From contig CAKSWA010000046.1 of assembly GCA_934511165.1 (NCBI GenBank), positions 1 to 15,679 of the forward strand: a stretch of DNA of 15,679 nucleotides, in the 5' to 3' direction. The first letter of the stretch is position 1, and every line of letters begins with the position of its first letter. The notes beneath the pieces are model-generated. The model was not told the DNA's origin and did no database searches. It saw only the letters and a program-made list of their open reading frames with translations. The translations under genes and the position numbers were made by a program. Origin of the DNA: an uncultured Oscillospiraceae bacterium (GTDB lineage: Bacteria > Bacillota > Clostridia > Oscillospirales > Oscillospiraceae). This document shows positions 1-15,679 of this stretch, one piece after another.

Positions 1-76
1 AGCACCCCCTGATGTAGTTCTATTTTCCTACATCAGGGGGTGTTTTGTCTATTGTCCGTTTTTACTGGTCCTGTTC
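1..76. repeat. Left copy of a perfect 76-bp inverted repeat (partner at 7217..7292). It has an internal hairpin (stem 3..17 / 28..42, loop 18..27) followed by TTTTGTCT and a second TTTTT run.
   Basis: Reverse complement of 1..76 equals 7217..7292 base for base. Position 77 versus 7216 may add one more matching base. The window starts at position 1, so the repeat could extend further left. Confidence 0.9.
3..50 (+). terminator. Intrinsic-terminator-like hairpin inside the left inverted repeat, oriented to stop rightward transcription entering the module.
   Basis: A perfect 15-bp stem (CACCCCCTGATGTAG / CTACATCAGGGGGTG) with a 10-nt loop is followed on the plus strand by TTTTGTCTATTGTCCGTTTTT. 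Confidence 0.4.
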
Positions 77-99
77 AAAAGGAAAGCGGGAATTTTTTG

Positions 100-939
100 T
101 TATCTCAGCTTTTTGAGCTCTTCGAGCACCGAGTACGGTATTGCGAGATTGCCGCAGCCCGTGCCCATGGAGATATGGGTTTTGCGCGTGCCGTGGTAGT
201 CGCTGCCGCCGGAAACGCCCATGCCGTACTTCTCCGCGGCGCGCAGCAGCCACGCGGTCTGCTCGGCGGAAAACTCGGAATAATACGCTTCCAGCGCCCG
301 GATGCCGAGCGCCTTTGCCGTTTCGATCAGCTCGATGAGCTCCGGCTCCGGGTAATGGTACTGCATCGGGTGCGCGAGCACCGGTACGCCGCCCGCGGCG
401 ACGATCGTTTCCACGGCTTTTGCAATGGAGATCCGGCGCTTCGGCAGATAGTACGGTTTGCCCTCGCCGAGGTACTTTTCAAATCCCTCCTTTACGGAGG
501 AGATGTATCCCTTGCGTATCAGATGCTCGCAGAAGTGCGGGCGGCCGAGCACCGAGTCCGGGTACTCCTCGCGCAGCTGCGCGATGGAGATATCAAACCC
601 GTCGCGCTCGAACATCGCGGCAATCTTCTCGTTCCGTTCGTCCCGCTCGGTCTTCACCCAGTCGAGCACCGGGCGGAGCTGCGGCGCGGCGGGGTCGATG
701 AAATAGCCGAGGATGTGGACGTTGTTGTCGCGGTAGTCCGAGGACACCTCGATCCCCGGCACGACCTCCACGCCGAGCTCCGCCCCGGCGCGCATCGCCT
801 CCGGCACGCCGGAGACGCTGTCGTGGTCGGTGATGCTCACCGCGGCAAGGCCGAGGGCCGCCGCCTTTTCCACCGCGGCACGCGGCGAATCCGTGCCGTC
901 CGAGGCCGTCGTATGAATATGCAGGTCAATATAACTCAT
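100..939 (-). CDS. PHP-domain metal-dependent phosphoesterase (TrpH/YciV-like)
   Basis: The N-terminus reads MSYIDLHIHTTASDGTDSP...ITDHD, with conserved His/Asp metal ligands throughout. The ATG at 939 has AAGGAAAC about 8 nt upstream. The longer ORF in the track (start 1116) overlaps the upstream gene and is less likely. Confidence 0.8.
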   Translation of the reverse strand: MSYIDLHIHTTASDGTDSPRAAVEKAAALGLAAVSITDHDSVSGVPEAMRAGAELGVEVVPGIEVSSDYRDNNVHILGYFIDPAAPQLRPVLDWVKTERDERNEKIAAMFERDGFDISIAQLREEYPDSVLGRPHFCEHLIRKGYISSVKEGFEKYLGEGKPYYLPKRRISIAKAVETIVAAGGVPVLAHPMQYHYPEPELIELIETAKALGIRALEAYYSEFSAEQTAWLLRAAEKYGMGVSGGSDYHGTRKTHISMGTGCGNLAIPYSVLEELKKLR

Positions 940-976
940 GGATAAATGGGTTTCCTTTTGCGGAGAATTTTGCCCG

Positions 977-1498
977 TCAGGGCTTCCAGTCGTAGCTGCC
1001 GCTGTTCTGGCTGCCGTTCTGGCCGTTATTCTGGCCGTAGGGGTTCTGCTGGTAGGGGTTCTGGGTATAACCGCCTTGCTGACCGTAGGGGTTCTGCCCG
1101 TAACCGCCCTGGCCATACCCGCCGCCGTAGCCGCCGGAGGGGTATTTGGGGCTGTCGCCGTACTGGTTCCAGCCGGGCTGGCTGTCCTTGCAGAGCCAGA
1201 TGATCAGGATGATCTGCCCGACGAGGGGGATAAAGTTCAGGAAGAACCACGCGCCGCTGCGGCCGATATCGTGCAGACGCCGCCAGCAGACACCGAGGCC
1301 GGGCAGGAACACGCCGATGTTCCAGAGCGAGAGCAGCAGCGAAGGAAAGTTGCTGTCGGTATTGCGGACAAACGCGGTGAGGACCGCGGTCACCGCCCAG
1401 TTGAGCAGCGCGAAGTACCAGTACTCGCTTCGCCGCGCGCGGCCGGAAAAGCAGAGGTACTTCTGGAATACGGATGTGATGGCTTGCTGAAAGCTCAT
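977..1498 (-). CDS. DUF805-family inner membrane protein with a C-terminal G/Y/Q/N-rich low-complexity tail
   Basis: It carries the RRSEYWYF...CWRRLHDIGRSGAWF motif typical of DUF805 (YhaH/YhaI-like). A strong GGAAGGAG site sits 6 nt upstream of the ATG. The tail (GGYGQNPYGQ...) is encoded by tandem GTAGGGGTTCTG-like DNA repeats at about 1035..1115. Confidence 0.75.
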   Translation of the reverse strand: MSFQQAITSVFQKYLCFSGRARRSEYWYFALLNWAVTAVLTAFVRNTDSNFPSLLLSLWNIGVFLPGLGVCWRRLHDIGRSGAWFFLNFIPLVGQIILIIWLCKDSQPGWNQYGDSPKYPSGGYGGGYGQGGYGQNPYGQQGGYTQNPYQQNPYGQNNGQNGSQNSGSYDWKP

Positions 1499-1539
1499 GG
1501 GTTTATCTCCTTCCGGTTTGTCTTTTTCTGTGTGGGAAT

Positions 1540-1568
1540 ATAGTATCGTACTTTCCCCTCGATTGCAA
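1540..1568 (-). promoter_or_regulatory. Putative sigma-70 promoter for the DUF805/PHP operon
   Basis: Minus strand TTGCAA (1568..1563), a 17-nt spacer, then TACTAT (1545..1540). It lies about 40 nt upstream of the RBS. Confidence 0.3.
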
Positions 1569-1695
1569 GAGCCGTTCCGGCGGGTTCCCGGCAGGTTTTT
1601 CTCGCCGCATTTATATCTTCTTTATATACTCCCTTCTTTTTGCCAACATTTTTGCTATCTTTTTTCAAAAAAGTACAGAATGTTTGTTATTTCTA

Positions 1696-1724
1696 TTGCT
1701 ATGGCGCGTTTTAGGGCGTATAGT
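1696..1724 (+). promoter_or_regulatory. Putative sigma-70 promoter for the SulP permease gene
   Basis: TTGCTA (1696..1701), a 17-nt spacer, then TATAGT (1719..1724). The GGAGGG RBS at 1744..1749 and the GTG start at 1755 follow. Confidence 0.35.
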
Positions 1725-1754
1725 GGACAGGCATGTTTTTTTGGAGGGATTTTC

Positions 1755-3398
1755 GTGATTGCTTCGTTTTTTGCCGGATTAAAGAGAGAATTTTCCGGCT
1801 ACAACGCCGCGAGACTGATGAAGGACGTTCTTGCCGGTCTCACGGTATGCGCCGTGGCGCTGCCGCTCGCGCTCGCGTTCGGCGTTTCATCCGGCGCTTC
1901 CGCCGCGGCGGGACTCGTTACGGCGATTATCGCCGGTATCGTCATTGCGCTGCTCGGCGGCGCGTCGTTCCAGATTTCCGGCCCCACCGGCGCGATGAGC
2001 GCGGTGCTCGTCGGCATCGTGGCAACGCACGGCTTGCAGGGCGTATTTTTCGCGTGCTTCGCCGCCGGAATCTTACTGCTGCTCGCCGGTGTGCTCCGGC
2101 TCGGGCGGCTCATCAGCTTCATTCCGATGCCCGTCATCATGGGCTTCACATCCGGCATTGCGATCATCATTGCGCTCGGCCAGATCGACAATTTCTTCGG
2201 CACAACGTCCGAAGGGCTTACAAACATCGAAAAGCTGCTCTCCTATGGGCGGCTCGGCTTTCATGTGAACTGGCAGGCGGCGCTCATCGGGCTGCTCGTC
2301 GTGGCAATCATGATCCTCTGGCCGAAAAAGTGGGGCGCGCGCGTCCCCGGCTCGCTTGTCGGCATCATCGTGGCCGCCATCACTGCGGGTGTATTCCACA
2401 TGGATTCTCTCGCCACCGTCGGCGACATTCCCCGCACGCTGCTGCTCGCCGACCGGCTGGATCTCTCGTCGCTCAATTTTGCGATGGTCAAAGACTTGCT
2501 CTCACCCATCGTGACGATCGCGGCGCTCGGCATGATCGAGAGCCTCCTTTGCGGCGCTTCCGCCTCACGCATGAAGGGCGAGGCGTTCAACGCCGATCAG
2601 GAGCTGATCGCGCAGGGTGTCGGCAACATCCTTCTGCCGCTCTTCGGCGGCGTGCCCGCCACGGCGGCCATCGCCCGCACGAGTGTGGCGGTCAAGTCCG
2701 GCCAGCAGACGCGCCTGACGAGCGTTTTCCACTCGGTATTCCTGCTCGCGTCCATGTTCCTGCTCGGCGGCGTGATGGCGCGGCTGCCGCTCTCGGCGCT
2801 CGCGGGCGTGCTCATGGTCACGGCGTGGCGCATGAACGACTGGTCAGGCATCCGTTACGTCTTCCGCCACAAATTCAAATCCGGCATCAGCCAGTTTCTG
2901 CTCACGATGGTCGCGACGGTCGTATTTGATCTCACGGTCGCGATTCTGTTCGGCGTTGTCTACTCCGCCATTTTGTACATGGCCAAGTCCAGCCAGATCC
3001 GCGTGAGTTTTTCGGCCATCGATACGAACAAGCTCCGCGCCATCGACGGCAAGCCGCCGATCCTCGAATCCGCGGGCGTGGCGTATGTAACGGGCGCGCT
3101 GTTTTTCGGCGCGGTGGACGAATTCAATCACCGTATGGCGGAGATGCCCGCCTACGATCATGTGATCCTCTCGATGCGCGGCATGCCGAGCGTGGACGTG
3201 TCCGGCGCGCAGGCGATGCTTGAGCTGTGTGAGAATCTGCTTGCGCTGGGCAAGACCGTGGCCTGCTGCGGCATGAGCGAGAGCGTCCGGCGCTACTTTG
3301 ACCGCGCCGGGATCACTGAGGTTCTCGGCGAGAACGCGTATTTCTGGAGCGCCGACCAGGCGATCCTCGATCTGCTGGACGCGGAAATTGTGGAATAA
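1755..3398 (+). CDS. SulP-family inorganic anion (sulfate/bicarbonate) permease with a C-terminal STAS domain
   Basis: It has FAGLKREFSGYNAARLMKDVLAGLTV...ALPLALAFGVSSGAS and many transmembrane segments, with a C-terminal STAS domain (...VDVSGAQAMLEL...). I chose the GTG at 1755 because of GGAGGG 5 nt upstream. The ATG at 1701 and the track start at 1497 lack an RBS. Confidence 0.8.
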   Translation: MIASFFAGLKREFSGYNAARLMKDVLAGLTVCAVALPLALAFGVSSGASAAAGLVTAIIAGIVIALLGGASFQISGPTGAMSAVLVGIVATHGLQGVFFACFAAGILLLLAGVLRLGRLISFIPMPVIMGFTSGIAIIIALGQIDNFFGTTSEGLTNIEKLLSYGRLGFHVNWQAALIGLLVVAIMILWPKKWGARVPGSLVGIIVAAITAGVFHMDSLATVGDIPRTLLLADRLDLSSLNFAMVKDLLSPIVTIAALGMIESLLCGASASRMKGEAFNADQELIAQGVGNILLPLFGGVPATAAIARTSVAVKSGQQTRLTSVFHSVFLLASMFLLGGVMARLPLSALAGVLMVTAWRMNDWSGIRYVFRHKFKSGISQFLLTMVATVVFDLTVAILFGVVYSAILYMAKSSQIRVSFSAIDTNKLRAIDGKPPILESAGVAYVTGALFFGAVDEFNHRMAEMPAYDHVILSMRGMPSVDVSGAQAMLELCENLLALGKTVACCGMSESVRRYFDRAGITEVLGENAYFWSADQAILDLLDAEIVE

Positions 3399-3424
3399 AT
3401 TGCATATATGAGCATATATGATTT

Positions 3425-3463
3425 GAGCCGCGGAGGGAATTCCCTCCGCGGCTCATTGCTTTA
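3425..3463 (+). terminator. Rho-independent terminator after the SulP gene
   Basis: A perfect hairpin GAGCCGCGGAGGG-AATT-CCCTCCGCGGCTC (3425..3454) is followed by ATTGCTTTA. Confidence 0.55.
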
Positions 3464-3497
3464 CAGGCTTGGCATGCAGCAGGGGGCGGTTTCGTTT

Positions 3498-3527
3498 TTC
3501 AAAATCCCCGGCGGCGCATGTTATAAC
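3498..3527 (+). promoter_or_regulatory. Putative promoter with extended -10 (TGtTATAAC) for the micro-ORF/SPFH/PcfJ operon
   Basis: TTCAAA (3498..3503), an 18-nt spacer, then TG-n-TATAAC (3519..3527). It lies about 28 nt upstream of the first small ORF. Confidence 0.3.
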
Positions 3528-3554
3528 CGTAGTTGAAGGGAGGAAGGAAAAGCG

Positions 3555-3656
3555 ATGATAAACCGTTCCATCGAAAATGCCTTTGCAGAAAAAGAGGCGG
3601 CATTCGGCAGGATTCTGGAGGACGGCGACAAACTTACGATCGAAACGGAGGGATAA
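3555..3656 (+). CDS. Small hydrophilic protein, 33 aa (MINRSIENAFAEKEAAFGRILEDGDKLTIETEG)
   Basis: An excellent RBS GAAGGGAGGAAGG ends 6 nt before the ATG. It is too short for the ORF track. Its stop codon lies within the RBS region of the next micro-ORF. Confidence 0.4.
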   Translation: MINRSIENAFAEKEAAFGRILEDGDKLTIETEG

Positions 3657-3660
3657 GGCA

Positions 3661-3741
3661 ATGGCAACGACAATGGCGGCCATATGTGCGCTTCTGGGTC
3701 TGGGGCTTCTGATCTGGGGGTTCGCTGTCGCGAGTTGGTGA
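3661..3741 (+). CDS. Hydrophobic single-transmembrane micro-protein, 26 aa (MATTMAAICALLGLGLLIWGFAVASW)
   Basis: GGAGGG sits 8 nt upstream of the ATG. The sequence is entirely hydrophobic and transmembrane-like. It is tandem with the preceding 33-aa ORF. Confidence 0.35.
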   Translation: MATTMAAICALLGLGLLIWGFAVASW

Positions 3742-3791
3742 CGCGAGCTTGCAGCGCACACAAAACATCACAAAAAGGAGAGGATGATTAC

Positions 3792-4763
3792 ATGTATCAG
3801 AGAATGCGCATCAGTGTGATCCGCGATCCCGGCGGCGACAGCCTGATCCGCTGTCAAGGCGACCTTTGTGGGCGCGGTAAAGGCGTGGTCGATGGAAGTC
3901 TTCTTCTGGTTCCGCCCAACACCACTGCCTATGCTTTCTGCAACGGCGTGATCTCTCCGGCGATCCCGCCGGGGCGGTACGAGCTGCTTAACACCGGAAT
4001 CCCTTCGCCGTTCTTCCATAGGCTAAAAATCATTCTTACCCGCGGCGATCCCGGCACCGATCTACGCGTTTTCTTCATTTCCGAAAGGACGAAATTCTAT
4101 AAGCTCGGCACCGGGGAGCTGCTTTTCACGAAGCGTTTAGGTCAACAATTCTCCTTCACAATGACCGCACTGGCCGCCTGTGGACTCGCCATGTCCGTTT
4201 CGGATCCCCTGAGGCTCATAAAAACGCTGGTTGGCTCTTGCACCGCGCTCGGCGAAGAGAATGTTGAAGCATGCTATCGCCATGCGATCCTGACCACCGT
4301 ACGTGAAGCGCTCTCGCGGGAAATCAACAAGCTTACTATCACCGAATTCAACAGTCATTTGACAGATATTTCGAGCGCGGTCTTCCCGGTCGTTTCCAAA
4401 GAGCTGGACGCCTACGGCCTGCATCTTGCGTCGTTTAAGGTCGAGGCAATAAACATCCCGGAGACGGAGCGCGGCAAACTGTTCGCCATGGAACAGAAAT
4501 ACGTGGACACAGATGTGGAGTTCGATAACTTGCAGCGCATCTTTGGCGGCTCGCTGAAAGACCGAACGGCAGCAGAAGCCTTGACCGGCATTCCCAGCCG
4601 GGGGCAGATTCTGCCCGCCGGAACCGGGGGCGGTATGGTGACGCCCCTGATACAGCTGGCCATGCTCAGCCGGGCCATGAAGAACCCGGATCTCTTCGAC
4701 GGCATCACGGACATGTATACCGGTGCTTCCTCTTCCGATGATGAAAAGAAAGGAACGACTTGA
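3792..4763 (+). CDS. SPFH/band-7 superfamily protein of the YdjI-like group (323 aa)
   Basis: AAAGGAGAGG lies 9 nt upstream of the ATG. Motif order matches my recall of YdjI-type SPFH proteins: IRDPGGDSLI..., LLLVPPNTTAYAFCNGVISPAIPPGRYEL...NTGIP, ...LRLIKTLVGS and ...KELDAYGLHLASFKVEAINIPE. This is from memory, not a search. The track start at 3684 has no RBS. Confidence 0.55.
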   Translation: MYQRMRISVIRDPGGDSLIRCQGDLCGRGKGVVDGSLLLVPPNTTAYAFCNGVISPAIPPGRYELLNTGIPSPFFHRLKIILTRGDPGTDLRVFFISERTKFYKLGTGELLFTKRLGQQFSFTMTALAACGLAMSVSDPLRLIKTLVGSCTALGEENVEACYRHAILTTVREALSREINKLTITEFNSHLTDISSAVFPVVSKELDAYGLHLASFKVEAINIPETERGKLFAMEQKYVDTDVEFDNLQRIFGGSLKDRTAAEALTGIPSRGQILPAGTGGGMVTPLIQLAMLSRAMKNPDLFDGITDMYTGASSSDDEKKGTT

Positions 4764-4765
4764 CG

Positions 4766-4879
4766 ATGAAACGCCATTACTCTCTCATTCTTCCCGTTGC
4801 CGTTGGTCTCGCGGCGGTGTTCCTGCCGCCTCCGCCGCCTCTTCCGCCGCAATACGGATCTTACCGATACGGGAGGTAA
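4766..4879 (+). CDS. Micro-ORF, 37 aa, with a transmembrane-like N-terminus and polyproline tract (MKRHYSLILPVAVGLAAVFLPPPPPLPPQYGSYRYGR)
   Basis: The ATG is 2 nt after the SPFH stop, with AAAGGAA 10 nt upstream. Its last codons contain the GGGAGG RBS of the downstream gene, and its stop is 6 nt before that gene's GTG start. Confidence 0.3.
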   Translation: MKRHYSLILPVAVGLAAVFLPPPPPLPPQYGSYRYGR

Positions 4880-4885
4880 TTTGTC

Positions 4886-6439
4886 GTGCCAAAGAAGAAT
4901 GTAGCCTCTCTTGCCGAAAAGTTCCCGGAGGCTGTCCGCTGGGGCGATGTACCGGATCAAAACCGTCCCGACGTGAACACCGGCAGGGGTTGCTCGGCGG
5001 CTTATGCAGAGGAGGTTCGATTGCTCCTTGAGAAGCATTTCGGGACACCCGTGCCCTCTCTTACACTTGACGCACCGCCCCGCGGAGAAAAGAACACGCG
5101 GTATTTTCTTATACTGGATGACGCAGAGAAAGAGAAAATCCGCGCGCTGCGCGATACATTCAACGCGCTTCCTGCCGCGGTCAAGGCCGGTTTCCCGGAG
5201 CTCATTCAGCCTGAAGCGAAGCCGAAACCGCAGCGGCAGGCCATCCGGTGCGTCAAGCTTCAGATGAACCGGGAAGTGTGGGTCATACAGTTCTACACCT
5301 TGGAGGGGGTGAAATATCACCGTTCTCTCGGCCGGACCATCGCGGCTGCGCTGCTCCCCGGCAAGCGTCCGTTCATCACGCTCTCCTCGGATGCTCCTGC
5401 AAGCGAGTTCTACGGGCTGTGGAACCCGCCGCAGGACAAAAGCGACTTTTTCTATCCCGGCCGGAACGAAGGAATGCGCTACAGCGTAAACAAAAATCTT
5501 ATGGAGAATCGTGCCTTCCGCGGTTTCGTGGTTGGCTTTCTCCGGACGGTCGCCGCGGCAGAGAAAAAACACATTCTTAAAGACGCTGCGCGCACCATTG
5601 AGCGTTGCGGCTGCTTTCTGCCGCAGCTGTCGTTTCCGGCTCTTCTCAAATTTCATACGCCGGGCGAGATCATCGCGAGCGTCCTCCCGGCGCGAAATGT
5701 CCTAAACCGCAATCTCAACACCCTCGATCTGAACGCCGGGTACGTCGCCGCCCGTTTCCTTTCGATGATCGATCCGCAGGATCGCCCGGCGCTTTCGTGC
5801 ATCACGGCCGAAGACGTACATCGTGTCCTTGCGAATGCGCCCTCGGTTCTGTTTCACGGCATGGGCACGAGAGCCGGGGTCACAGCCTATCTCGACGCCT
5901 ACATAGCAGATAAGTTTCGACAGGAGCCCTTTGATTTCAATCCCTCCGGGGCGTTGGCCATGGCGCGGGATTACCTGAACATGTGCGAAAATCTGCATGT
6001 AAAGATAAGGTATGGCCTTGAGCCGGAGGCATATCTGCGCGCCCATGACGAGCTTGCCCGGCTGCAGCGGGATCGCATAGCGGAACAGGAAGATGCGCAG
6101 CCGCTGATCACCGAGCCCTCCGGATTCGACAAGCTGGAAGCTGTCTTGCCGGGCGAATTTACCCGGATGCGGTCAACAAGGCAGCTCCGGCTTGAGGGTC
6201 AGCGCCAGCGGAACTGCGCATTCAGCCGCCGCGGGCTCCTGCGCTCAGATACGGCCGCGATTTTTCATTGGGACTGCGGGGAAAAGTCTTACACCGTGCA
6301 ATTTGGCATACTGCCAAACGGCCGGTATAGTATTGACGAGATGCGCGGCCGCTGCAACGAGCCCTGTCTGCCGGAGCACCGGCGAAAGCTGGAGGGGCTT
6401 CTCCGCGGGATCAACCGCAAGGGAGCGTTGGGGGCATAG
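4886..6439 (+). CDS. Large protein (517 aa) with a PcfJ-like C-terminal region; function unknown
   Basis: The GTG start has GGGAGG 9 nt upstream. The C-terminal segment LEGQRQRNCAFSRRG...IFHW...YTVQFGI...YSIDEMRGRCNEPCLPE resembles, from memory, the conserved block of PcfJ-like proteins (PF14284), which are typical of conjugative plasmids, ICEs and phages. This is unverified. Confidence 0.45.
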   Translation: MPKKNVASLAEKFPEAVRWGDVPDQNRPDVNTGRGCSAAYAEEVRLLLEKHFGTPVPSLTLDAPPRGEKNTRYFLILDDAEKEKIRALRDTFNALPAAVKAGFPELIQPEAKPKPQRQAIRCVKLQMNREVWVIQFYTLEGVKYHRSLGRTIAAALLPGKRPFITLSSDAPASEFYGLWNPPQDKSDFFYPGRNEGMRYSVNKNLMENRAFRGFVVGFLRTVAAAEKKHILKDAARTIERCGCFLPQLSFPALLKFHTPGEIIASVLPARNVLNRNLNTLDLNAGYVAARFLSMIDPQDRPALSCITAEDVHRVLANAPSVLFHGMGTRAGVTAYLDAYIADKFRQEPFDFNPSGALAMARDYLNMCENLHVKIRYGLEPEAYLRAHDELARLQRDRIAEQEDAQPLITEPSGFDKLEAVLPGEFTRMRSTRQLRLEGQRQRNCAFSRRGLLRSDTAAIFHWDCGEKSYTVQFGILPNGRYSIDEMRGRCNEPCLPEHRRKLEGLLRGINRKGALGA

Positions 6440-6448
6440 CATCACAAA

Positions 6449-6488
6449 GCTTAACCGCCGCCAGGCAGCTGCCCGGCGGCGGTTAAGA
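6449..6488. terminator. Bidirectional terminator: GC-rich near-perfect palindrome of about 38 bp between convergent genes
   Basis: GCTTAACCGCCGCCAGGCAGCTGCCCGGCGGCGGTTAAG has one mismatch. It lies between the PcfJ-like stop (6439) and the minus-strand stop at 6493. Confidence 0.55.
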
Positions 6489-6492
6489 TGCT

Positions 6493-7128
6493 TCATTTCT
6501 CAATTTTAAAAGGGTTTTCGTCCCAGCGGTCTGGCTTCAGAACGCTTCGCTTTGCAACGCTTTTCGGGTTTTCCTTGGATATTGCGTCAACGGCTGCGAT
6601 CAAAAAGGCGCCGCTGACAATTGCCCAAAACCAGCGGCGAAATGCAAAGAGGATCGCTGTCACGAATGCGATGCCGGCGGCAAGAAAAATATACGTCAGG
6701 AGCGGGACTTTCTGCTCGGCATAGTTGTCCCGGCGGGATTCATAAACATTTTCGGCGTAATTTCGCATCTCGTCTGTAACAGCGTTGAATCGCACGAGCT
6801 TTTCCCAGACTCCGGATGCATACCCTTTTCCGCAGGGGTCGAGATCCTGAAAATCGTGTGTCTCGGCTTTTAAAATAAGATGATAAAGACGCACCTCGAG
6901 CGGATGATCGGCTGCCAGCTGCCGGAAAAGGTCGGACGCTGTAGGCCAGTTTCCGGCTTCGAGATGGGCTATTGCCTTAGCATACTTCCGGCTGTCTTCC
7001 ATCTGCTTTTTTGCATCATCGAACTGGTCGATCGGCGTCCCACAGAGATCACAAACGAGCCTCATCTTTTTGTTCAGATGATAGGTGCTGCAGCCGCATC
7101 GCGGGCAGGCCTGCGTTTGATTCATCAT
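6493..7128 (-). CDS. Zinc-ribbon / TPR-like / C-terminal transmembrane protein (211 aa), function unknown
   Basis: It starts ATGATG with GGAGGGG 5 nt upstream. The N-terminus has CPRCGCSTYH...CDLCG. The middle is helical and TPR-like. The C-terminus has two hydrophobic segments (LTYIFLAAGIAFVTAILFAF / FWAIVSGAFLIAAV). The track start at 7248 is an unsupported extension. Confidence 0.6.
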   Translation of the reverse strand: MMNQTQACPRCGCSTYHLNKKMRLVCDLCGTPIDQFDDAKKQMEDSRKYAKAIAHLEAGNWPTASDLFRQLAADHPLEVRLYHLILKAETHDFQDLDPCGKGYASGVWEKLVRFNAVTDEMRNYAENVYESRRDNYAEQKVPLLTYIFLAAGIAFVTAILFAFRRWFWAIVSGAFLIAAVDAISKENPKSVAKRSVLKPDRWDENPFKIEK

Positions 7129-7146
7129 AAGATCCCCTCCTGTATT

Positions 7147-7161
7147 CTGTGTTAAACACAG
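7147..7161. promoter_or_regulatory. Perfect 15-bp palindrome CTGTGTT-A-AACACAG in the 5' region of the zinc-ribbon gene
   Basis: It is seen directly and lies 19..33 nt upstream of the start codon on the minus strand, abutting the RBS. It is a candidate operator. Confidence 0.3.
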
Positions 7162-7216
7162 TATCTCACATTTCAAAAAGGGAAATGGGAAATGAAAAGC
7201 AGCCCCCGCAGACGGT

Positions 7217-7292
7217 GAACAGGACCAGTAAAAACGGACAATAGACAAAACACCCCCTGATGTAGGAAAATAGAACTACATCAGGGGGTGCT
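7217..7292. repeat. Right copy of the perfect 76-bp inverted repeat (hairpin at 7251..7290)
   Basis: It is the exact reverse complement of 1..76. On the minus strand the hairpin is followed by the T-runs, so it would stop leftward transcription entering the module. Confidence 0.9.
7243..7290 (-). terminator. Terminator-like hairpin inside the right inverted repeat, minus-strand orientation
   Basis: It mirrors 3..50. Confidence 0.35.
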
Positions 7293-7295
7293 GTT

Positions 7296-7472
7296 ATGTC
7301 AAAAAGAGAATATACCCATGTACGGTTGCTGTATCCAGAGATTAAAGCAATGATAGAAGCAGGGAAAACGCAGCGGGAGATCGCGGAATACTATGGATTC
7401 AAGGACAAGTATGTAGTAAAGGGACTGTTTGCTTATACGGCATACCCTGATATTATTATGGAGAGTCTTTAA
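7296..7472 (+). CDS. 59-aa helix-turn-helix-like protein, possibly the N-terminal remnant of a transposase or recombinase gene
   Basis: The sequence is MSKREYTHVRLLYPEIKAMIEAGKTQREIAEYYGFKDKYVVKGLFAYTAYPDIIMESL. The ATG lies 4 nt after the right repeat. Its only SD-like sequence (GGGGG) sits within the hairpin stem. It is below the track's length cutoff. Confidence 0.3.
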   Translation: MSKREYTHVRLLYPEIKAMIEAGKTQREIAEYYGFKDKYVVKGLFAYTAYPDIIMESL

Positions 7473-7540
7473 CTCGCAGTGAACCACAAAACAATTACAA
7501 TCAAAGTCTAAATTAGAAGTTGGAGGTGTTTCTCATTGCC

Positions 7541-7564
7541 AATCATAACAAATCTGTTATGATT
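7541..7564. repeat. Perfect 10-4-10 inverted repeat AATCATAACA-AATC-TGTTATGATT in an AT-rich 416-bp non-coding leader
   Basis: It is seen directly. It is a candidate operator or element-end remnant. Confidence 0.5.
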
Positions 7565-7888
7565 AGAATTTAAAACAATATTATACAAAAATTTTATGCT
7601 GTGCTAGTATTATTTTGTTGCAACAGACAGACGGCGCGCCCTTGTGTCAGAGTTCAGAAAAATCCAATCTAAGTTTATACCCTATATTTTAATGCAGAAT
7701 CTGGGAGGTTATTCGTTTCTGCTTTCGTAACAGGCATAGTGCAGGATTATATTATTCCTTTCTATTGACATCGAACTGGAATAATTCGAAAACTTCCAAC
7801 AAGAGCTATTCACTTCTACTTTAAAGTGGCGGCTCTCGCCAAATTCTGCCCCTAAAGACCCTTAAAAAAAGAAAGTGAGGGAATCCTT

Positions 7889-9076
7889 ATGACTTGGTCT
7901 CCTATTTTGGCATTCGCAGTGATTGCGCTGGCATTTGGCATTGGCGATGTGATTGCTGCAAAGACACGCGGCGTTATCAGTTCCGTCTTGGTGGCTATTC
8001 TTTTGTTCCTTGTATTTGGAAGTACGTTCAAACTTCTTCCTGCCGATTTGATGAATCAGTCTGGCCTGATGAGCCTTATTCCCACGTTCGGTATGGCTCT
8101 TATTCTCGTGAATGTGGGTTCTATGCTTGATCTGAATGTTCTGAGACGTGAATGGAAAACCGTCCTTGTTTCGCTTGCAGGTGTGGCTGGATTAGTAGTG
8201 ATCTACCTCACTGTTGGCACATTGATTTTTGGCAAGGAGTACGCTCTGGGAGCGATGGGCCCTGCCTCTGGCGGTATGGCAGCAACCATGATTCTAACTG
8301 CTGCGGCGAACGAGGCCGGACGTGCAGATCTGGCAGGTTTCGTCGCTTCGGTGATGGCCCTTCAGGTTCTGGTTGGACTCCCTATTGCATCCTTCTGCCT
8401 GCGAAAAGAGGCTAACCGATTCTTAAATGCTGGCGAAAATCAGCGGGCCAAAATGCTGGAAGAAGGCAGAAAACTGAGCATTCGTATTTTGCCTGAAACC
8501 CCCGAAGTACTGGACACCCCGAATATCCATCTGGCTCGAGTGGCACTTGTTGGGTTTATTGCCTATATGGTGACTTCCCTGACTGGTATTTCCACAGGTA
8601 TTACATATTTGGTGGGTGGTGTGCTGTTTGCTGCCTTGGGTGTCATTGAACCGGGTGCTGTTCGAAAAGCTGGTGCGGAGGGCCTGCTGATGCTGGCTAC
8701 TTACTGCAGTGTCACCAGCAGCTTCGTGAGCATGACTCTTTCACAGTTCGGCGGAATGCTTCCGTCAGTTGTTGGCCTGTTGCTGATTGGAGCAATCGGT
8801 GTTATTGGATTCTCTATATTAGTTGGAAAACTTCTAAAATGGAGTCCGTGGCTGTCTGTTGCTGTTGGTATCGGTTGTATGTTGGGCTATCCTGTAAACT
8901 ATGCTGCAGCCATGGAAGTTTCTTCTGGCGTATCCAAGGGAAGAGGACTCAATAAAGAAGATGAGCAGAAATTGGTGGATCAGTTACTGCCCAAGATGAT
9001 CGTCTCTTGTGTGGTATCGATAAGTATTGCTTCTGTGATACTGGCAGGCGCCATCGCCCCTATTTTGTTTGGTTAA
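7889..9076 (+). CDS. Polytopic membrane protein, putative transporter (395 aa); family not confidently assigned
   Basis: GTGAGGG lies 7 nt upstream of the ATG. It has about 10 to 12 predicted hydrophobic helices. It ends 1 nt before the amidohydrolase start and is probably a substrate transporter for it. Confidence 0.65.
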   Translation: MTWSPILAFAVIALAFGIGDVIAAKTRGVISSVLVAILLFLVFGSTFKLLPADLMNQSGLMSLIPTFGMALILVNVGSMLDLNVLRREWKTVLVSLAGVAGLVVIYLTVGTLIFGKEYALGAMGPASGGMAATMILTAAANEAGRADLAGFVASVMALQVLVGLPIASFCLRKEANRFLNAGENQRAKMLEEGRKLSIRILPETPEVLDTPNIHLARVALVGFIAYMVTSLTGISTGITYLVGGVLFAALGVIEPGAVRKAGAEGLLMLATYCSVTSSFVSMTLSQFGGMLPSVVGLLLIGAIGVIGFSILVGKLLKWSPWLSVAVGIGCMLGYPVNYAAAMEVSSGVSKGRGLNKEDEQKLVDQLLPKMIVSCVVSISIASVILAGAIAPILFG

Positions 9077-10288
9077 ATGACAAATATGAATACGCTTTTG
9101 AACGATGCGCGGATTCTGCAAGAAGAGATTGTTGCAAATCGTCGCGCGATTCACAAATTTGCAGAAGTAGGGTTTGATTTACCTCATACCTATGCCTACG
9201 TCTTTGATAAGTTGATCGAGTATGGCTATAACCCCCAAAAGGTTGGTAAGATGGGCATTACCTGTTTGGCGGGGAAGCCTGGGGCCACTATCTTGCTTCG
9301 GGCAGATATGGACGCTCTTCCCATGATGGAGGAGAGCGGAGAAAGCTTTGCTGCCACCAATGGCAATTGCCATTCTTGCGGACATGACTGCCATACCGCA
9401 ATGCTCTTAGGAGCAGCCAAGCTCCTGAAAGAACGGGAAAACGAACTGTGCGGAACAGTAAAGTTCATGTTTCAGCCTGCCGAAGAGATCATGGGCGGAG
9501 CCCTAGATATGTTGGAAAATGGCATCTTAGAAAACCCTAAAGTGGATATGGCTTTGGGCCTTCATATCATTACCGGAAACGAAATCAGCAAGTCAGGGCG
9601 TATCTGCTGTATTCACCATTGTGTAGCTACTTCAGGCGATGCAATAAAGATTACTGTGCAGGGAAAGGATGCCCACGGCTCACTGCCGGAAAAAGGTGTA
9701 GATGCAATTCATATTGCTGCTCATATCATCCTGGCCTTAGAGGAACTGACAGCTCGTGAGCTTCCCATGAAGCAGGACAGTATTGTTTTGGTGGGACGTA
9801 TTGTGGGTGGTACAACTTGCAACAGCGTAGCCGGTGAGACAACACTGGAGGTATCTGTTCGTACTAACGGCCCTGAAGAGCGCAATTTTCTTCTTAAACG
9901 AGTTGAGGAAATCGCCACCGGTGTAGCAGCTACCTTCCGGGGAAAAGCAAAGGTAGAACATTTATATGGTGCTCCACCACTTGTAAACCCCGAACCGGAG
10001 TTGTTGGAAATTCAGTCATACCTAAGGGAAATGCTTCCACAGGAATTTGTTGTAGACTGTCCCAAGATGGGTGGAAGTGAGGACTTTACGATGGTTTCCG
10101 AACGGGTGACATCAGTATTTCTTCAACTTGGAGTGGGAAGCATTGATGAAGGCTACCCATGCGGTCCCCATCAGCCTGCTATGCGGGTGGATGAATCTGC
10201 CCTCCCAGTGGGTGTGGCCGCTTATACTCAATGTGCTTTGCGCTGGCTGGAAGAACACCAAAATGAAGAACCTAGATTTGATAGATAA
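9077..10288 (+). CDS. M20D-family amidohydrolase (N-acyl-amino-acid amidohydrolase / hippurate hydrolase-like)
   Basis: It carries HSCGHDCHTAMLLGAAK, the metal-binding signature of the ama/hipO-type M20D peptidases. The N-terminus reads LQEEIVANRRAIHKFAEVGFD. The start is coupled to the upstream gene (TAAATG) with no SD. Confidence 0.85.
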   Translation: MTNMNTLLNDARILQEEIVANRRAIHKFAEVGFDLPHTYAYVFDKLIEYGYNPQKVGKMGITCLAGKPGATILLRADMDALPMMEESGESFAATNGNCHSCGHDCHTAMLLGAAKLLKERENELCGTVKFMFQPAEEIMGGALDMLENGILENPKVDMALGLHIITGNEISKSGRICCIHHCVATSGDAIKITVQGKDAHGSLPEKGVDAIHIAAHIILALEELTARELPMKQDSIVLVGRIVGGTTCNSVAGETTLEVSVRTNGPEERNFLLKRVEEIATGVAATFRGKAKVEHLYGAPPLVNPEPELLEIQSYLREMLPQEFVVDCPKMGGSEDFTMVSERVTSVFLQLGVGSIDEGYPCGPHQPAMRVDESALPVGVAAYTQCALRWLEEHQNEEPRFDR

Positions 10289-10326
10289 AACTGGGGGAAT
10301 TGCTTCCTTTTTGATGAGTAAAAATC

Positions 10327-10401
10327 ATGTTAGGAATTGTGTTTAATGCAGCGAGTGTGATATGCGGCAGCTTTTTTGGCGTGCTGGTTGGGAAAAAATA
10401 A
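10327..10401 (+). pseudogene. Possible 24-codon N-terminal remnant of a DUF554-type membrane protein gene
   Basis: MLGIVFNAASVICGSFFGVLVGKK resembles DUF554 N-termini (YdfK-like). There is no RBS and the frame terminates immediately. Confidence 0.2.
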
Positions 10402-10561
10402 ATCATTCCTTTGCAGAAGTAATGAATCAGGTCTTGCCGTATTGCAAAACTGTGTGACTTTCCAGTAGCAGATATGCTTCCAGCCCTTGTAATAGTCTTT
10501 CCCTTGAGTGCACTTTGGGGCCGGATTCCGCTCTAATCTAACTTATTCTCAAAAGCCATCT

Positions 10562-10590
10562 TTCAAGTATAGAAATATTTATGGTATACT
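10562..10590 (+). promoter_or_regulatory. Putative promoter (extended -10 TGgTATACT) for the LysR gene
   Basis: TG-n-TATACT at 10582..10590 with a weak -35 TTCAAG. It lies about 25 nt upstream of the AAAGGAG RBS. Confidence 0.3.
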
Positions 10591-10631
10591 GGCAATGTCC
10601 TGAAAGTGGGTAACGAAAAGGAGTTGGATAT

Positions 10632-11558
10632 ATGACGATTGAACGGCTCCGCTGTTTTGTGGCGGCAGCAAAGCACTTGAATTTCACTCGGGCAGCAGCA
10701 GAACTGCACATGGCCCAAACTGCCATGAGTCGGCAGATTGCTACGTTAGAGGATGAATTAAACTGTCGCCTATTTGATAGGACCAATCGGTCTGTCCAAC
10801 TCACCCCCGCGGGCAAGTGCTTTTTTGATGGAATTGGCCCTTTGCTGAAATTATATGATAAGACCATAGAAGAAACTCAAGTAGTAAGTAAGCGCTTGGC
10901 AGGAGAACTGCGGGTAGGAATTGGACAGTATGAGCAAAGTTTTGTCTCTGAATTGGTGCGGGAATTTCATCAGAGTTATCCAATGGTAGAGGTAATGGTA
11001 ACCAAGTATGGCTATCAGGACTTGCTCGAACACTTGGTCACAGGAGAGATAGATGTGGCGTTTGCCCTCCCAGTCAGCACTGAATATCTGGCAGATCAAG
11101 AGGTAGAGATACGGGAACTCTTCTATTCGGATGTTTGCATTGCGGTGTGTGAGAATCATCCGATGGCTGGTGCAAAGACATTTCCGAAGGAACGCTTTGA
11201 GCAAGAGCGTCTTTTAACTATCAGTGAAGAGGATGGTCCATGTTCTTTTCGTATCTTGATTGAAAAATTTGAAAAAAAACACGTGCGCTTTAAGGATATT
11301 CGTCGAGTAAACAGCCTGGATGCAGCACTTTTGATGGTCAAGGCGGGGCTGGGCATTGCTATAATCCCTGAATTCTTAAAAGTAAGGGTGCCAGAGGGAG
11401 TTACCACAGTTCCTACCAGAGGTTGGCAAGCGGCAGGGAATCAGTTTGTGGCTATTTCACGCAAAGGTCATAAAGAATCGCAGGTTGAAGCTTTTCTTCA
11501 GGGAATCGCAACATCCCATACTCTTTGGGAACAAATGGAACTACTTAATGTCTACTGA
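10632..11558 (+). CDS. LysR-family transcriptional regulator
   Basis: It has an N-terminal HTH (IERLRCFVAAAKHLNFTRAAAELHMAQTAMSRQIATLEDEL) and a C-terminal substrate-binding domain. AAAGGAG lies 8 nt upstream. Confidence 0.85.
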   Translation: MTIERLRCFVAAAKHLNFTRAAAELHMAQTAMSRQIATLEDELNCRLFDRTNRSVQLTPAGKCFFDGIGPLLKLYDKTIEETQVVSKRLAGELRVGIGQYEQSFVSELVREFHQSYPMVEVMVTKYGYQDLLEHLVTGEIDVAFALPVSTEYLADQEVEIRELFYSDVCIAVCENHPMAGAKTFPKERFEQERLLTISEEDGPCSFRILIEKFEKKHVRFKDIRRVNSLDAALLMVKAGLGIAIIPEFLKVRVPEGVTTVPTRGWQAAGNQFVAISRKGHKESQVEAFLQGIATSHTLWEQMELLNVY

Positions 11559-11566
11559 ACAATAGC

Positions 11567-12602
11567 CTATTTTTCCACGGGCATGAAAATAGCCAGCAGA
11601 TATGTAAGCAAACGCAAAATGGCGCACTGAATCTTGCGGAGATTCAGCACCAGAACGGACATAGCAATCACATGGGCAGCCGTTTCCCGCAGTTTAGCGG
11701 TGACAAGTCCCATACCGCATTTTCGCTTTGCCAGACTGAACTTGCGCTCCACTTCCACGCTCGCACTCATCCCGGTAATCCTGAGCCTTGTCTCTGGTTT
11801 CGCCCTTCTTAGGACGTCCCAGTGCCGGACCGGATAGCCGGATTCCGTGTGCCTTGCAATAGTTGAGATTCTCACGGTTTCGGTAGATCTTGCCTGCCAG
11901 AATGCGGCTTGGATAATGTCCTTCCCGCTCCCGGAACCGTTCCGCCATCTCCTGCAGATTCCCAGCTTCATTGTAGGCATCAAAAGAGCAGCATTCCAGC
12001 CGTGTCCATCCATCTACAACACTGATGTCCAGCTTGGCGCCAAACTCCACCGGCTTGCCTGTTTTTCCCCGTACGATGGGACGGACGAAAGGCTGGCTCA
12101 CACTGACGATTCGGTCATTCACATGGTGGGTGTGGTTATCATACATGTACTTCTGCTGCTCATAGATGGTGCGGACCGTATCCAGACGTTCCATCTGCCG
12201 TGTGGTCAAGGTTTTTCCAAGGGACAGTTTGCCATCTATGGCATCGAGGTCACGCCGGAGATAAGTCAGCTGCTTTCCGATTGCTTTGCGGGTCATCTTG
12301 GCGGTATGCTTGCGACATCTTGTGTATTTCAGGTAATCTTTCCGGGCCCGCTTGCGGTAAGTGCGTGGCTTCTTCCCATCCGCGGGATCATGGAGAACAT
12401 CCAGAAGCGCCTCGGCGTTCTCTCTGGCCTCATTGAGCAGAGAAACGTCCTGGGGATAACGGATATTGGACGGTGCACAGGTGGCGTCCACAATCATGGT
12501 GCCGCTGTTTCCGCCTGTTCCTGGATGATTGCCAGAGTCATTATCGTCATCCCTGGATTTGGCCTCTTTTTCCTGACGCTCCTTTGCGTCCCGCACGATC
12601 AT
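11567..12602 (-). mobile_element. Decayed IS5/IS1182-superfamily (DDE_Tnp_1-type) transposase gene: N-terminally truncated and frameshifted near 11756..11770
   Basis: Frame 1 (11694..12602) has TMIVDATCAPSNIRYPQD...YRNRENLNYCKAHGIRLSGPALGRPKK. The expected C-terminal block VEVERKFSLAKRKCGMGLV...LNLRKI continues in a different frame (11567..12013). The catalytic Asp lies only about 35 aa into the ORF, so about 100 N-terminal residues are missing. No terminal inverted repeats are evident, and the last stop is only 8 bp from the LysR stop. Confidence 0.7.
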
Positions 12603-12626
12603 CTCATTTTTTTGACAAAGGACAGC

Positions 12627-13412
12627 ATGGTTTTCAATTCCGCGGAGGAAATCAATGGCCTGTACGTTGTCTTAAACGGAACACTGGAATCCTTTTTCTA
12701 TGAAAACGGAAACTATTACACAAACAAGATCCTCAAGCAGGGCGCAATCGTCGGGACGAGCCGGTTTTTGACCGGCGGCCGTCACACGGGATTGAAATGC
12801 CGGACCGATGCGATCGTTGCCTATGTTTCCCATGATGTCCTGATCCGCTGGGATAAGCAGGCGCTGCTGCAGCTTCTTTCCACCCAGTCCCAGAAAAACC
12901 AGCACCTGATCAACCAGATCACAACGCTGTTCCTGTGCTCCTGTACGAAGCGGCTGCTCCTTTTCCTGTACGAAATGGCAAAGGACAATCTCACCATGGG
13001 AAGAATGGATATCCCGGTTCAGATCTCCATATCCAACAAGGACATTGCCAGCATCATCAACACCTCCCGGGAGATCGAGCTTCTCGCGGTGGTTGACGGC
13101 GAGGTCGTTGGCACCGCTGGGATAGACGCCGTCGGAACAAAATACAAAGTGGCGCACCGCGCCGAATTCGGCATCAGCGTGCTGAAGGAATTCTGGGGGC
13201 TTGGCATCGGCCGCGCGATGATGGACGCGTGCATCCAATGCGCGAGAGACGCCGGGTATGTCCAGCTGGAGCTGAGCGTGGTGGCGGACAACGCTCAGGC
13301 GATCGCCATGTACCAAAGGGCCGGGTTCGTGGAATGCGGCCGGAACCCCAGGGGCTTCCGCTCACGGGCGGCGGGGTATCAGGAAGTTGCTTCCATACTT
13401 CTGACGCTGTGA
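12627..13412 (+). CDS. Mosaic ORF: a Crp/Fnr-type fragment (cNMP-binding domain plus partial HTH) fused in frame to the C-terminal two-thirds of a GNAT acetyltransferase
   Basis: The 12603..13080 part is Crp-like (AEEINGLYVVLNGTLE...GAIVGTSRFL...RLLLFLYEMAK...ISNKDIASIINTSREIE) but lacks both its N-terminus and its recognition helix. From about 13081 it continues as GNAT motifs (AVVDGEVVGTAG...EFWGLGIGRAMMDA...AIAMYQRAGF). Base composition changes visibly at the same point. Confidence 0.5.
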   Translation: MVFNSAEEINGLYVVLNGTLESFFYENGNYYTNKILKQGAIVGTSRFLTGGRHTGLKCRTDAIVAYVSHDVLIRWDKQALLQLLSTQSQKNQHLINQITTLFLCSCTKRLLLFLYEMAKDNLTMGRMDIPVQISISNKDIASIINTSREIELLAVVDGEVVGTAGIDAVGTKYKVAHRAEFGISVLKEFWGLGIGRAMMDACIQCARDAGYVQLELSVVADNAQAIAMYQRAGFVECGRNPRGFRSRAAGYQEVASILLTL

Positions 13413-13460
13413 CGCACCCCGCAAAGAAAAACATACGGCAGCAGAGGAAAAGAAACGTCT

Positions 13461-13889
13461 ATGGAAATTCGCCCATTGGATAAGGAAACCTATGCGGGCA
13501 GGAAATTTACCGCCCGGTATACGACAAGCGGGTATTACGATATCGCCGTCTCGGAAGGCGGCTTTGCGATGCAGTATACGCCGTTTGAAGCGCCTCTCGA
13601 GCGCGTGAATTTGGAGCCGTATTTGGACGGCGTGGAGCTGGTCGTTGCCGGCGGAGAGTCGGACAGGGACGCAAGACCTCTGGACTACGAATGGGTGCTG
13701 GACATCCGCGAGCAGTGCATCCGAAAGCAGGTCAATTTCGAGTTCCGCCAATGCGGAACGCACTCCATCAAAGACGGCAGACAGTATAAGCTCCAGACCC
13801 GAGACCTGTGCCGGCAGGCGCGTCTGGCCGGTATCAACTACCAATGTGAGCCGAGCCGGGATAATAAACGGGAGTCATCTTATGCATGA
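13461..13889 (+). CDS. 142-aa ORF with a DUF5131 (phage Gp37/Gp68-like) C-terminal block and a possibly GNAT-like N-terminus
   Basis: LVVAGGESDRDARPLDYEWVLDIREQCIRKQVNFEFRQCG matches the recalled DUF5131 C-terminus (WVIVGGESGPGARP...WVRSIRDQC...FFFKQWG). The Cys-motif N-terminal half is absent. The first about 47 aa (MEIRPLDKETYAGRKFTARYTTSGYYD...) instead resemble the start of a GNAT subfamily. Confidence 0.45.
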   Translation: MEIRPLDKETYAGRKFTARYTTSGYYDIAVSEGGFAMQYTPFEAPLERVNLEPYLDGVELVVAGGESDRDARPLDYEWVLDIREQCIRKQVNFEFRQCGTHSIKDGRQYKLQTRDLCRQARLAGINYQCEPSRDNKRESSYA

Positions 13890-15606: not shown

Positions 15607-15679
15607 AGACTGTCAAAAAAGCCTCGCAGAGTTTGCGCCCGCAGGCGCAAATAGAGTATCAATCATTTTCTCCGGCGAC

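Follow-up and report, generated by a model that had tools for sequence, protein, structure and literature searches.

Positions 1 to 15,679 of contig CAKSWA010000046.1, from an uncultured Oscillospiraceae bacterium (assembly GCA_934511165.1), constitute the whole stretch of DNA analyzed here (the window), which opens with a 7.1-kb gene segment bracketed by a perfect inverted repeat. The two arms of this repeat are very probably left ends of a multi-copy insertion sequence (IS) of the IS3 family that is present here as two copies in opposite orientation, each marked by the left terminal inverted repeat (IRL) of the element. We are equally confident of the overall picture, which is that of an ordinary, abundant multi-copy IS together with an assembly break, the module between the copies being not mobile and not shown to be invertible. 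What is new is only the IS lineage itself, with its preference for terminator loops as targets and its left-end hairpin, and the novelty is mild.

A repeat search of the window places the arms at positions 1-77 and 7216-7292, where 77 nt are 100% complementary across an intervening 7138 nt. By our estimate (~1e8 position pairs x 4^-77), the chance expectation for a repeat of this length is ~1e-38. Both arms contain the same hairpin, composed of 15 Watson-Crick pairs, one G-U pair, and a 10-nt loop, and window 1-100 folds at -39.3 kcal/mol (z = -6.0). On the strand reading into the 7.1-kb segment, TTTTGTCTATTGTCCGTTTTT directly follows the hairpin. An earlier reading made from the letters alone (hereafter the sequence-only reading) had described perfect 76-bp inverted repeats, each a hairpin with a 15-bp stem and a 10-nt loop followed by T-runs, and had remarked that the window starts exactly at the left copy. 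The hairpin is as described apart from the additional G-U pair, and base 1 is indeed the first base of the left arm. Exact complementarity also holds, but the arms are 77 nt long and the repeat really extends further, to 214 bp.

This extension became visible in L001, a MEGAHIT k141 contig found by looking up the PHP-domain protein encoded at 100-939 (minus strand) in public assemblies. L001 is 99.99% identical to window 1-7370 and extends 330 nt to the left of base 1, where the 77-mer runs on into an ATG, a complete 95-aa orfA (MSKREYTHVRLLYPEIKAMIEAGK...IERK), and the start of an overlapping orfB. Homology between the two repeat copies reaches window position 7429 (214 bp with one mismatch, 99.5% identity), which sets a minimum of 214 bp for the repeat, whose left copy is cut off by the end of the contig. 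The 25-mer that opens the arm (TGAACAGGACCAGTAAAAACGGACA, the IRL) is present in 45 stretches from GTDB genomes, most of them at contig ends; the carriers are gut metagenome-assembled genomes (MAGs) of Oscillospiraceae and other Clostridia, Lawsonibacter hominis, and Intestinimonas butyriciproducens, with at most 10 matches per MAG. Cultured carriers of related copies include L. hominis NSJ-51 and I. butyriciproducens An565.

The length of the IS stub left at contig ends follows the assembler's k, with values of 77, 55, 119, and 141 across other assemblies. Four contig ends in a MAG labelled ASSEMBLY_K77 carry stubs of 77, 77, 76, and 76 nt that are 100% identical to the window 77-mer. Stubs of 50-55 nt occur in contig sets with NODE-style (SPAdes-like) names, for which we inferred k = 55, stubs of 116-119 nt in k119 contigs, and stubs of 140-141 nt in a further MAG whose k is unrecorded. 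Because stub lengths track k in these other assemblies, the window most likely comes from a k = 77 de Bruijn-graph assembly, base 1 being the place where the graph broke at a multi-copy repeat. In the sample from which L001 derives, the window's content is divided over two contigs, L001 and L049, with the break inside the right copy. The sequence-only reading had suspected that the repeat might be longer or multi-copy and so explain an assembly break, and had proposed a search for further copies in related genomes; the L001 extension, the 214-bp homology, and the many GTDB copies bear this out. A recent duplication or gene conversion of the 76-mer, which it also raised, is not needed, as the arms are copies of one IS. 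An exact repeat, inverted or direct, that touches a contig end and has the length of a common assembler k is the signature of a collapsed multi-copy element, and only evidence from reads would justify describing modules bracketed by such repeats as mobile or invertible.

Full-length relatives reached through orfA homologues (L054-L056 and L059) define an element of 1283 bp. More than 3000 orfA homologues were found, usually on ~1.3-kb contigs, as a collapsed IS would lead one to expect. The complete 1283-bp element of L056 matches the IS fragment of L001 at 97.8% identity. Its terminal inverted repeats are imperfect and of the 5'-TG...CA-3' type (IRL TGAACAGGACCAGTAAAAACGGACA..., right terminal inverted repeat (IRR) ...TGTCCGCACAAACTGGAGCAGTTCA; termini TGAAC...GTTCA), and the full-length IS ends (IRL TGAACAGGACCAG..., IRR ...CTGGAGCAGTTCA) form an imperfect inverted repeat of ~48 nt. 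The 285-aa OrfB of L056 scores 308.8 bits against the NCBIfam model NF033516 "IS3 family transposase" (cutoff 160) and matches the Pfam families HTH_21, rve, rve_2, and rve_3; no Pfam or NCBIfam model matched OrfA. In L056, orfA spans 3001-3291 and orfB 3288-4145, and (3288-3001) mod 3 = 2 places orfB in the -1 frame. The overlap window of the two frames is 40 nt, and the orfB GTG overlaps the orfA TGA (GTGA), an arrangement suggestive of translational coupling or of an unusual shift. An IS1447-type IS3 element with +1 transcriptional slippage (PMC6211511) was rejected on the ground that no A7-A9 run is present. The lineage is abundant in gut Oscillospiraceae and other Clostridia. Plasmid and phage collections are nearly empty of relatives, yielding two weak Subdoligranulum plasmid matches and one viral contig.

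The left copy (copy A) is ended at base 1 by the contig end and carried on by L001 into orfA and the start of orfB. Its insertion site can be compared with three contigs from other samples, L092 (22.9 kb), L093, and L095, which were reached through cluster members of the PcfJ-like protein encoded in the module. These are 98.4-98.5% identical to window 81-7266 (81-6437 for L093, whose contig ends there) and have no IS at the left site. There, 46 nt between the convergent GntR and PHP genes read AAAAAAATTCCCGCTTTCC-GAGG-AGAGCGGGAATTTTTT, an intact bidirectional terminator (-26.5 kcal/mol, z = -6.4). The IS end in the window lies three nt past the first arm of this terminator. Since near-identical strains keep the terminator intact and free of the IS, copy A is a recent, strain-specific insertion into a terminator loop. 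Past its IRR, the DNA should continue with ...AGAGCGGGAATTTTTTATGCGG and then the GntR-family gene, with a 3-4 bp duplication.

The right copy (copy B) is a dead stump. Its orfA is broken after codon 45 at position 7429, from where the frame runs on to a stop at 7470-7472, and blastn and tblastn located the rest of the IS nowhere else in the window. An AT-rich island had been said to begin 1 nt after the right copy; instead, the IS sequence ends only at 7429, and the low-GC DNA from 7430 onward is unrelated to it. In L092 and L094-L096, which are 98.4-99% identical to the window, an IS occupies exactly the same junction (…GCAGACGG|TGAAC…), but it presents its IRR end and has the opposite orientation; the right-site IS of L092 is also truncated (407 bp; L092 12310-12740). 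Conversion of the flank|IRR arrangement of L092 to the flank|IRL arrangement of the window by inversion between copies was considered and rejected, as each flank stays with its own IS end. Because recombination between copies cannot turn one into the other, the right terminator loop was struck independently in both orientations. In L092, window 7430-13913 is replaced by ~1.1 kb of unrelated DNA and homology resumes at 13914, which makes 7429/7430 a rearrangement or deletion breakpoint.

Both window copies fit a pattern that extends across the lineage, with a half terminator at 78-99 beside copy A and a half hairpin at 7195-7215 beside copy B. Among distinct IRL-side flanks at loci L003-L091, 41 of 69 look like half-terminators, with an A-run and then, inside 35 nt, a GC-rich arm, and the mirror image is present in 15 of 22 IRR-side flanks. 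The rate in 20,000 control windows from the same loci is 4.9% (Fisher p = 1e-35 for IRL and 3e-15 for IRR). Flanks that belong together restore perfect terminator hairpins whose loops hold the IS, as in L082 (17-bp stem), L066 (16 bp), L086, and L076, with target duplications of 3-4 bp (TAT, CAG, TTT, and CGAA, respectively); the window copies each lack one flank. Perfect complementarity of at least 8 nt, the 99th percentile of the single-pair null, is found in 7 of 16 own-locus flank pairs. Several flanks instead match a perfect partner on another contig (15, 28, and 13 nt), indicating that flanks are swapped across IS copies in short-read assemblies. For such cross-pairings the null is high, the best of 69 partners reaching a run of 10 nt at its 95th percentile, and we counted as evidence cross runs of at least 12 nt or own-locus pairs of at least 8 nt. 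Over ~70 independent insertions, the lineage prefers the loops of intrinsic-terminator hairpins and generates 3-4 bp duplications. The hairpin-targeted insertion invoked by the sequence-only reading is therefore right in another sense, in that the IS itself enters terminator-hairpin loops. A literature search, outside which ISfinder lay, returned no description of this preference in the lineage.

Several short metagenome contigs that span the full IS (L067/L071, L064/L068, L072/L078, and L081) have flanks from different insertion sites, and the perfect hairpin partners of these flanks sit on other contigs. Such mismatched flanks reflect joins across identical IS copies that are either chimeric or the product of real recombination.

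Every intact family member sampled carries the left-end hairpin. A compensatory change distinguishes CCCCCTGATGTAG/CTACATCAGGGGG in the window from CCTCCTATGGTAG/CTACCGTAGGAGG in L005, one base pair is lost from both hairpin arms in L003 and L019, and the basal pairs covary (CAC/GTG, ATA/TAT, and AGC/GCT). Covariation was judged from individual folds; MAFFT set one divergent hairpin out of register. The extended terminal inverted repeat takes in the 5' arm. In every case the Shine-Dalgarno sequence (GGGGG or GGAGG) lies in the 3' arm, 6-9 nt upstream of the orfA start codon, and a lower stem (GACAA/TTGTC) often carries the pairing right up to the ATG. A promoter-like pair spans the structure, with TAGACA in the IRL separated by 18 nt from GAAAAT in the loop, and loop variants retain a -10-like hexamer (TATTAT in L031, TAGAAT in L005). 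No tRNA genes or known RNA families (Rfam) matched the hairpin or the AT-rich spacer.

These features could reflect a regulatory role, a proposal built on sequence features that we regard as about evenly balanced. Read-through transcripts from a neighboring gene whose terminator has been split by the IS would hold both arms, so that the ribosome-binding site would be sequestered and no translation would follow. Directed by the -35 element TAGACA in the IRL and the -10-like hexamer within the loop, the IS's own transcript would begin no earlier than the loop, and its Shine-Dalgarno sequence would stay unpaired. In the antisense direction, the hairpin and the U-rich complement of the IRL may act as an intrinsic terminator for transcripts leaving the IS. 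The hairpins and T-tracts had earlier been interpreted as terminators facing the module; the geometry is right for transcripts leaving the IS, but the structure is a conserved part of the IS and not a module device. A more inclusive model, to which we give slightly less than even credence, holds that the lineage recognizes the structure of its target and would therefore enter unrelated terminator loops in either orientation and repeatedly, that its own hairpin hides the transposase ribosome-binding site and re-terminates outward transcription, and that the occupied sites become hot spots of strain rearrangement.

In L036 (minus strand, from 6516) and L039 (minus strand, from 3999), the loop of the element's own left-end hairpin is interrupted by another IS-type end. 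In L036 the inserted DNA is a 45-nt palindrome in which two IRR-like termini adjoin each other back to back (TGAACCGCCCCAGTTTGTGC GGACA GCACAAACTGGGGTGGTTCA). The hairpin of the IS may thus itself be a target.

Several observations weigh against the interpretation developed above. The value k = 77 for the window is taken from the pattern in other assemblies. Copy A was recovered to 407 nt, and its full length is an assumption, as neither its IRR junction nor its target duplication was recovered; JGI metagenomes were scanned for this far junction twice, first with a pattern of IRR plus arm and then with the arm on the GntR side, and neither scan found it. Nucleotides 78-80, which adjoin copy A, read TTT on the PHP-sense strand, versus GAG in the empty-site loop of the three 98.5%-identical strains, a difference that could be strain variation in the loop or something brought by the insertion. 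The 40-nt orfA/orfB overlap has no canonical A6G or similar heptamer. If the IS uses an IS911-like circle-junction promoter, transcripts from it would also include the hairpin, which would fit poorly with a mechanism that silences only external transcripts.

Two inverted copies of one IS around a set of genes could also represent a composite transposon that mobilizes the 7.1-kb segment as cargo. IS3-family elements are able to form composite transposons, and one of the enclosed genes has a borderline PcfJ-like match. We consider this extremely improbable. The right copy is a 214-bp stump that has neither transposase nor outer (IRR) end, and both IRL tips face the segment, so there are no outward-facing bounding ends. 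In the 98.5%-identical strains the genes lie in the same chromosomal neighborhood, the left site is free of the IS, and the right site has the opposite IS end; a 93.7%-identical strain (L002) has the DUF805 and PHP genes, also without the IS. With no functional outer end on the right copy and a unit that strains do not gain or lose as a whole, a composite transposon that functions at present is excluded. In L092, L093, and L095, the same module genes follow a chromosomal neighborhood of PfkB, RbsD, two oxidoreductases, and a GntR-family regulator, after which comes PHP. The sequence-only reading had proposed a cargo module mobilized between two repeat copies and had named related strains with the same genes and no flanking repeats as a finding that would speak against it; these three contigs are such a case at the left site, and the cargo proposal fails on them. 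The 7.1 kb between the copies is thus, from its context in relatives, ordinary chromosomal DNA between two insertion sites and not a mobile unit.

Recombination between the inverted copies might instead flip the module, possibly as a switch. Inverted copies that share 214 bp at 99.5% identity would in principle suffice for RecA-dependent inversion, and a minor inverted subpopulation is compatible with short-read contigs that end in the repeat. Yet no open reading frame (ORF) in the window encodes an invertase or recombinase domain, every assembly links the PHP side to the orfB-bearing copy and the 211-aa protein side to the stump and AT-rich DNA, and the single-nucleotide polymorphism that distinguishes the copies is in the same phase in all assemblies, with no contig carrying a flipped junction. 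The recombination-invertible segment put forward earlier is therefore highly improbable, given one orientation in all available assemblies and a right copy that is a stump. The possibility that the 77-mer is a non-coding dispersed terminator repeat resembling a repetitive extragenic palindrome (REP), with the module merely lying between two copies, accounts for the strong hairpin, the T-rich tract after it, and the many copies across genomes. Its probability is close to nil: wherever downstream sequence exists, the 77-mer runs into orfA/orfB or their remnants, it starts with a canonical terminal repeat that is mirrored at the other IS end, and no Rfam family matches it. Continuity with transposase genes likewise removes the REP-like repeat suggested by the sequence-only reading. 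Its remaining suggestion, terminal repeats of an uncharacterized element, was close, as the arms are left terminal inverted repeats; they belong to two separate IS copies and not to one 7.2-kb element.

An IS3-family identity for both copies accords with the general design of IS3, IS150, IS911, and IS2, which the element resembles in its size (1.28 kb), orfB in the -1 frame, DDE/rve transposase, TG...CA termini, and 3-4 bp duplications. It differs from them in the missing canonical A6G slippery motif and in an OrfA with no Pfam or NCBIfam match. Within the family, IS1397, ISKpn1, and ISPsy8 have a strong preference for extragenic GC-rich REP palindromes (PMC1525189). The element described here shares with them an IS3-family transposase and palindromic targets, its insertions lying in hairpin loops, whereas its targets are differing terminator hairpins (A-tract, GC stem, T-tract) with no single REP consensus and its hosts are gut Clostridia, not Proteobacteria. 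The variety of target hairpins suggests recognition directed by structure rather than by sequence. IS1272/TnSha1, of the IS1182 family in staphylococci, also targets terminator hairpins without a sequence consensus, enters the same hairpin repeatedly and in both orientations, cuts in the stem, and removes part of the hairpin without target duplication (PMC4923244). The right site of the window, which holds an IRL in one strain set and an IRR in another, recalls this behavior; in contrast, the present IS inserts in the loop, keeps both arms, makes 3-4 bp duplications, and has a transposase of another family.

Parallels also exist for the left-end hairpin. The left end of IS200 combines a terminator against impinging transcription with a 5'-untranslated-region stem-loop that sequesters a GGGGG-type Shine-Dalgarno sequence (PMC4513863), and an end-proximal stem-loop of IS1181 terminates the transcript of a neighboring gene (PMC7049690). 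By analogy, one hairpin could do both jobs here; the difference is that pairing between the Shine-Dalgarno and anti-Shine-Dalgarno sequences on the sense strand and a terminator-like hairpin with a U-tract on the antisense strand are combined in a single predicted structure. If the behavior proposed for the lineage is undescribed, it extends the REP-targeting paradigm of IS1397/ISKpn1 to generic terminators in Firmicutes. The locus illustrates how one IS lineage shapes strain variation in gut Clostridia: terminators are split and the insertions tolerated, the same loops are entered again, and stumps remain beside variable DNA. A possible gain is better IS annotation and a better reading of assembly breaks in gut metagenomes.

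Table 1 Features of the two IS copies and the segment between them (window coordinates).
Feature	Position	Strand	Remarks
IS copy A, left end (IRL side)	1..77	-	100% complementary to 7216-7292; points left out of the window
Copy A hairpin	2-43	-	Within the 77-nt arm
Copy A terminal inverted repeat	53-77	-	Reads TGAACAGGACCAGTAAAAACGGACA on the minus strand
Surviving terminator half (GGAAAGCGGGAATTTTTT + 3 junction nt)	78..99		Between the PHP and GntR-family genes, split by copy A
PHP-domain phosphoesterase, 279 aa	100..939	-	Pfam PF02811; identical protein in L001 and L002
DUF805 membrane protein, 173 aa	977..1498	-	Pfam PF05656, 99.9 bits
SulP-family anion permease with STAS domain, 572 aa as called in L001	1680..3398	+	Pfam PF00916, PF01740
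SPFH/Band-7 protein, 323 aa as called	3792..4763	+	Pfam PF13421, PF01145
PcfJ-like protein, 517 aa	4886..6439	+	Pfam PF14284, 24.9 bits vs gathering score 25.0
211-aa protein, N-terminal CxxC...CxxC motif, C-terminal hydrophobic segment	6493..7128	-	From translation; no significant Pfam family
A-run + GC-rich half-hairpin (AAAAGCAGCCCCCGCAGACGG)	7195..7215		Right-site flank, partner arm missing; scores as half-terminator flank
IS copy B, 214-bp left-end remnant	7216..7429	+	214/214 aligned, 99.5% identity to the L001 IS copy
Copy B IRL	7216-7240	+	Extended inverted repeat to ~7264
Copy B promoter-like pair	TAGACA 7242-7247 / GAAAAT 7266-7271	+	Promoter-like site prediction
Copy B hairpin	7250-7291	+	Shine-Dalgarno GGGGGTG in the 3' arm; orfA start 7296
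Unrelated AT-rich DNA, 35.7% GC	7430..7888		Abuts the IS stump; IS homology ends at 7429

The genes of the module are listed in Table 1. A search of 5.8 billion proteins with the PcfJ-like protein returned three homologue clusters only (99%, 53%, and 37% identity), and the gene is rare, lineage-restricted, and in a chromosomal context. The sequence-only reading had taken it as a hallmark of conjugative or phage DNA in the cargo; the family match stands at the borderline of its gathering score, and the gene lies in conserved chromosomal synteny. The gene for the 211-aa protein adjoins the IS site in all relatives. A homologue search with this protein gave no homologue at E <= 1e-10, though exact copies exist in the contig index, and the missing homologues look like a quirk of search sensitivity rather than biology. 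Unoccupied terminator-like palindromes lie between convergent or adjacent genes of the module at 3424-3455 (14-bp stem) and 6450-6487 (17-bp stem), and are potential targets of the kind that the IS uses.

To the right of copy B, window 7430-11566 is a low-GC block (45.7% GC, compared with 58% in the module) that encodes an M20 peptidase, a LysR regulator, and a 395-aa protein that matches no family. The IS3 stump forms its left boundary and a DDE_Tnp_1_2 transposase remnant (~11567-11770) its right one. Further along, window 13461-14409 contains a DUF5131 fragment (profile positions 157-226 of 243) and a weak APH-like ORF, which are probably gene remnants in a variable region. The right end of the window (15640-15679) also stops in a near-palindrome, TTTTCTCCGGCGAC ATGC GCGTCGGAGAAAA, past which L049 (8430-8470 region) runs on for 66 nt; this end is probably another assembly break at a hairpin.

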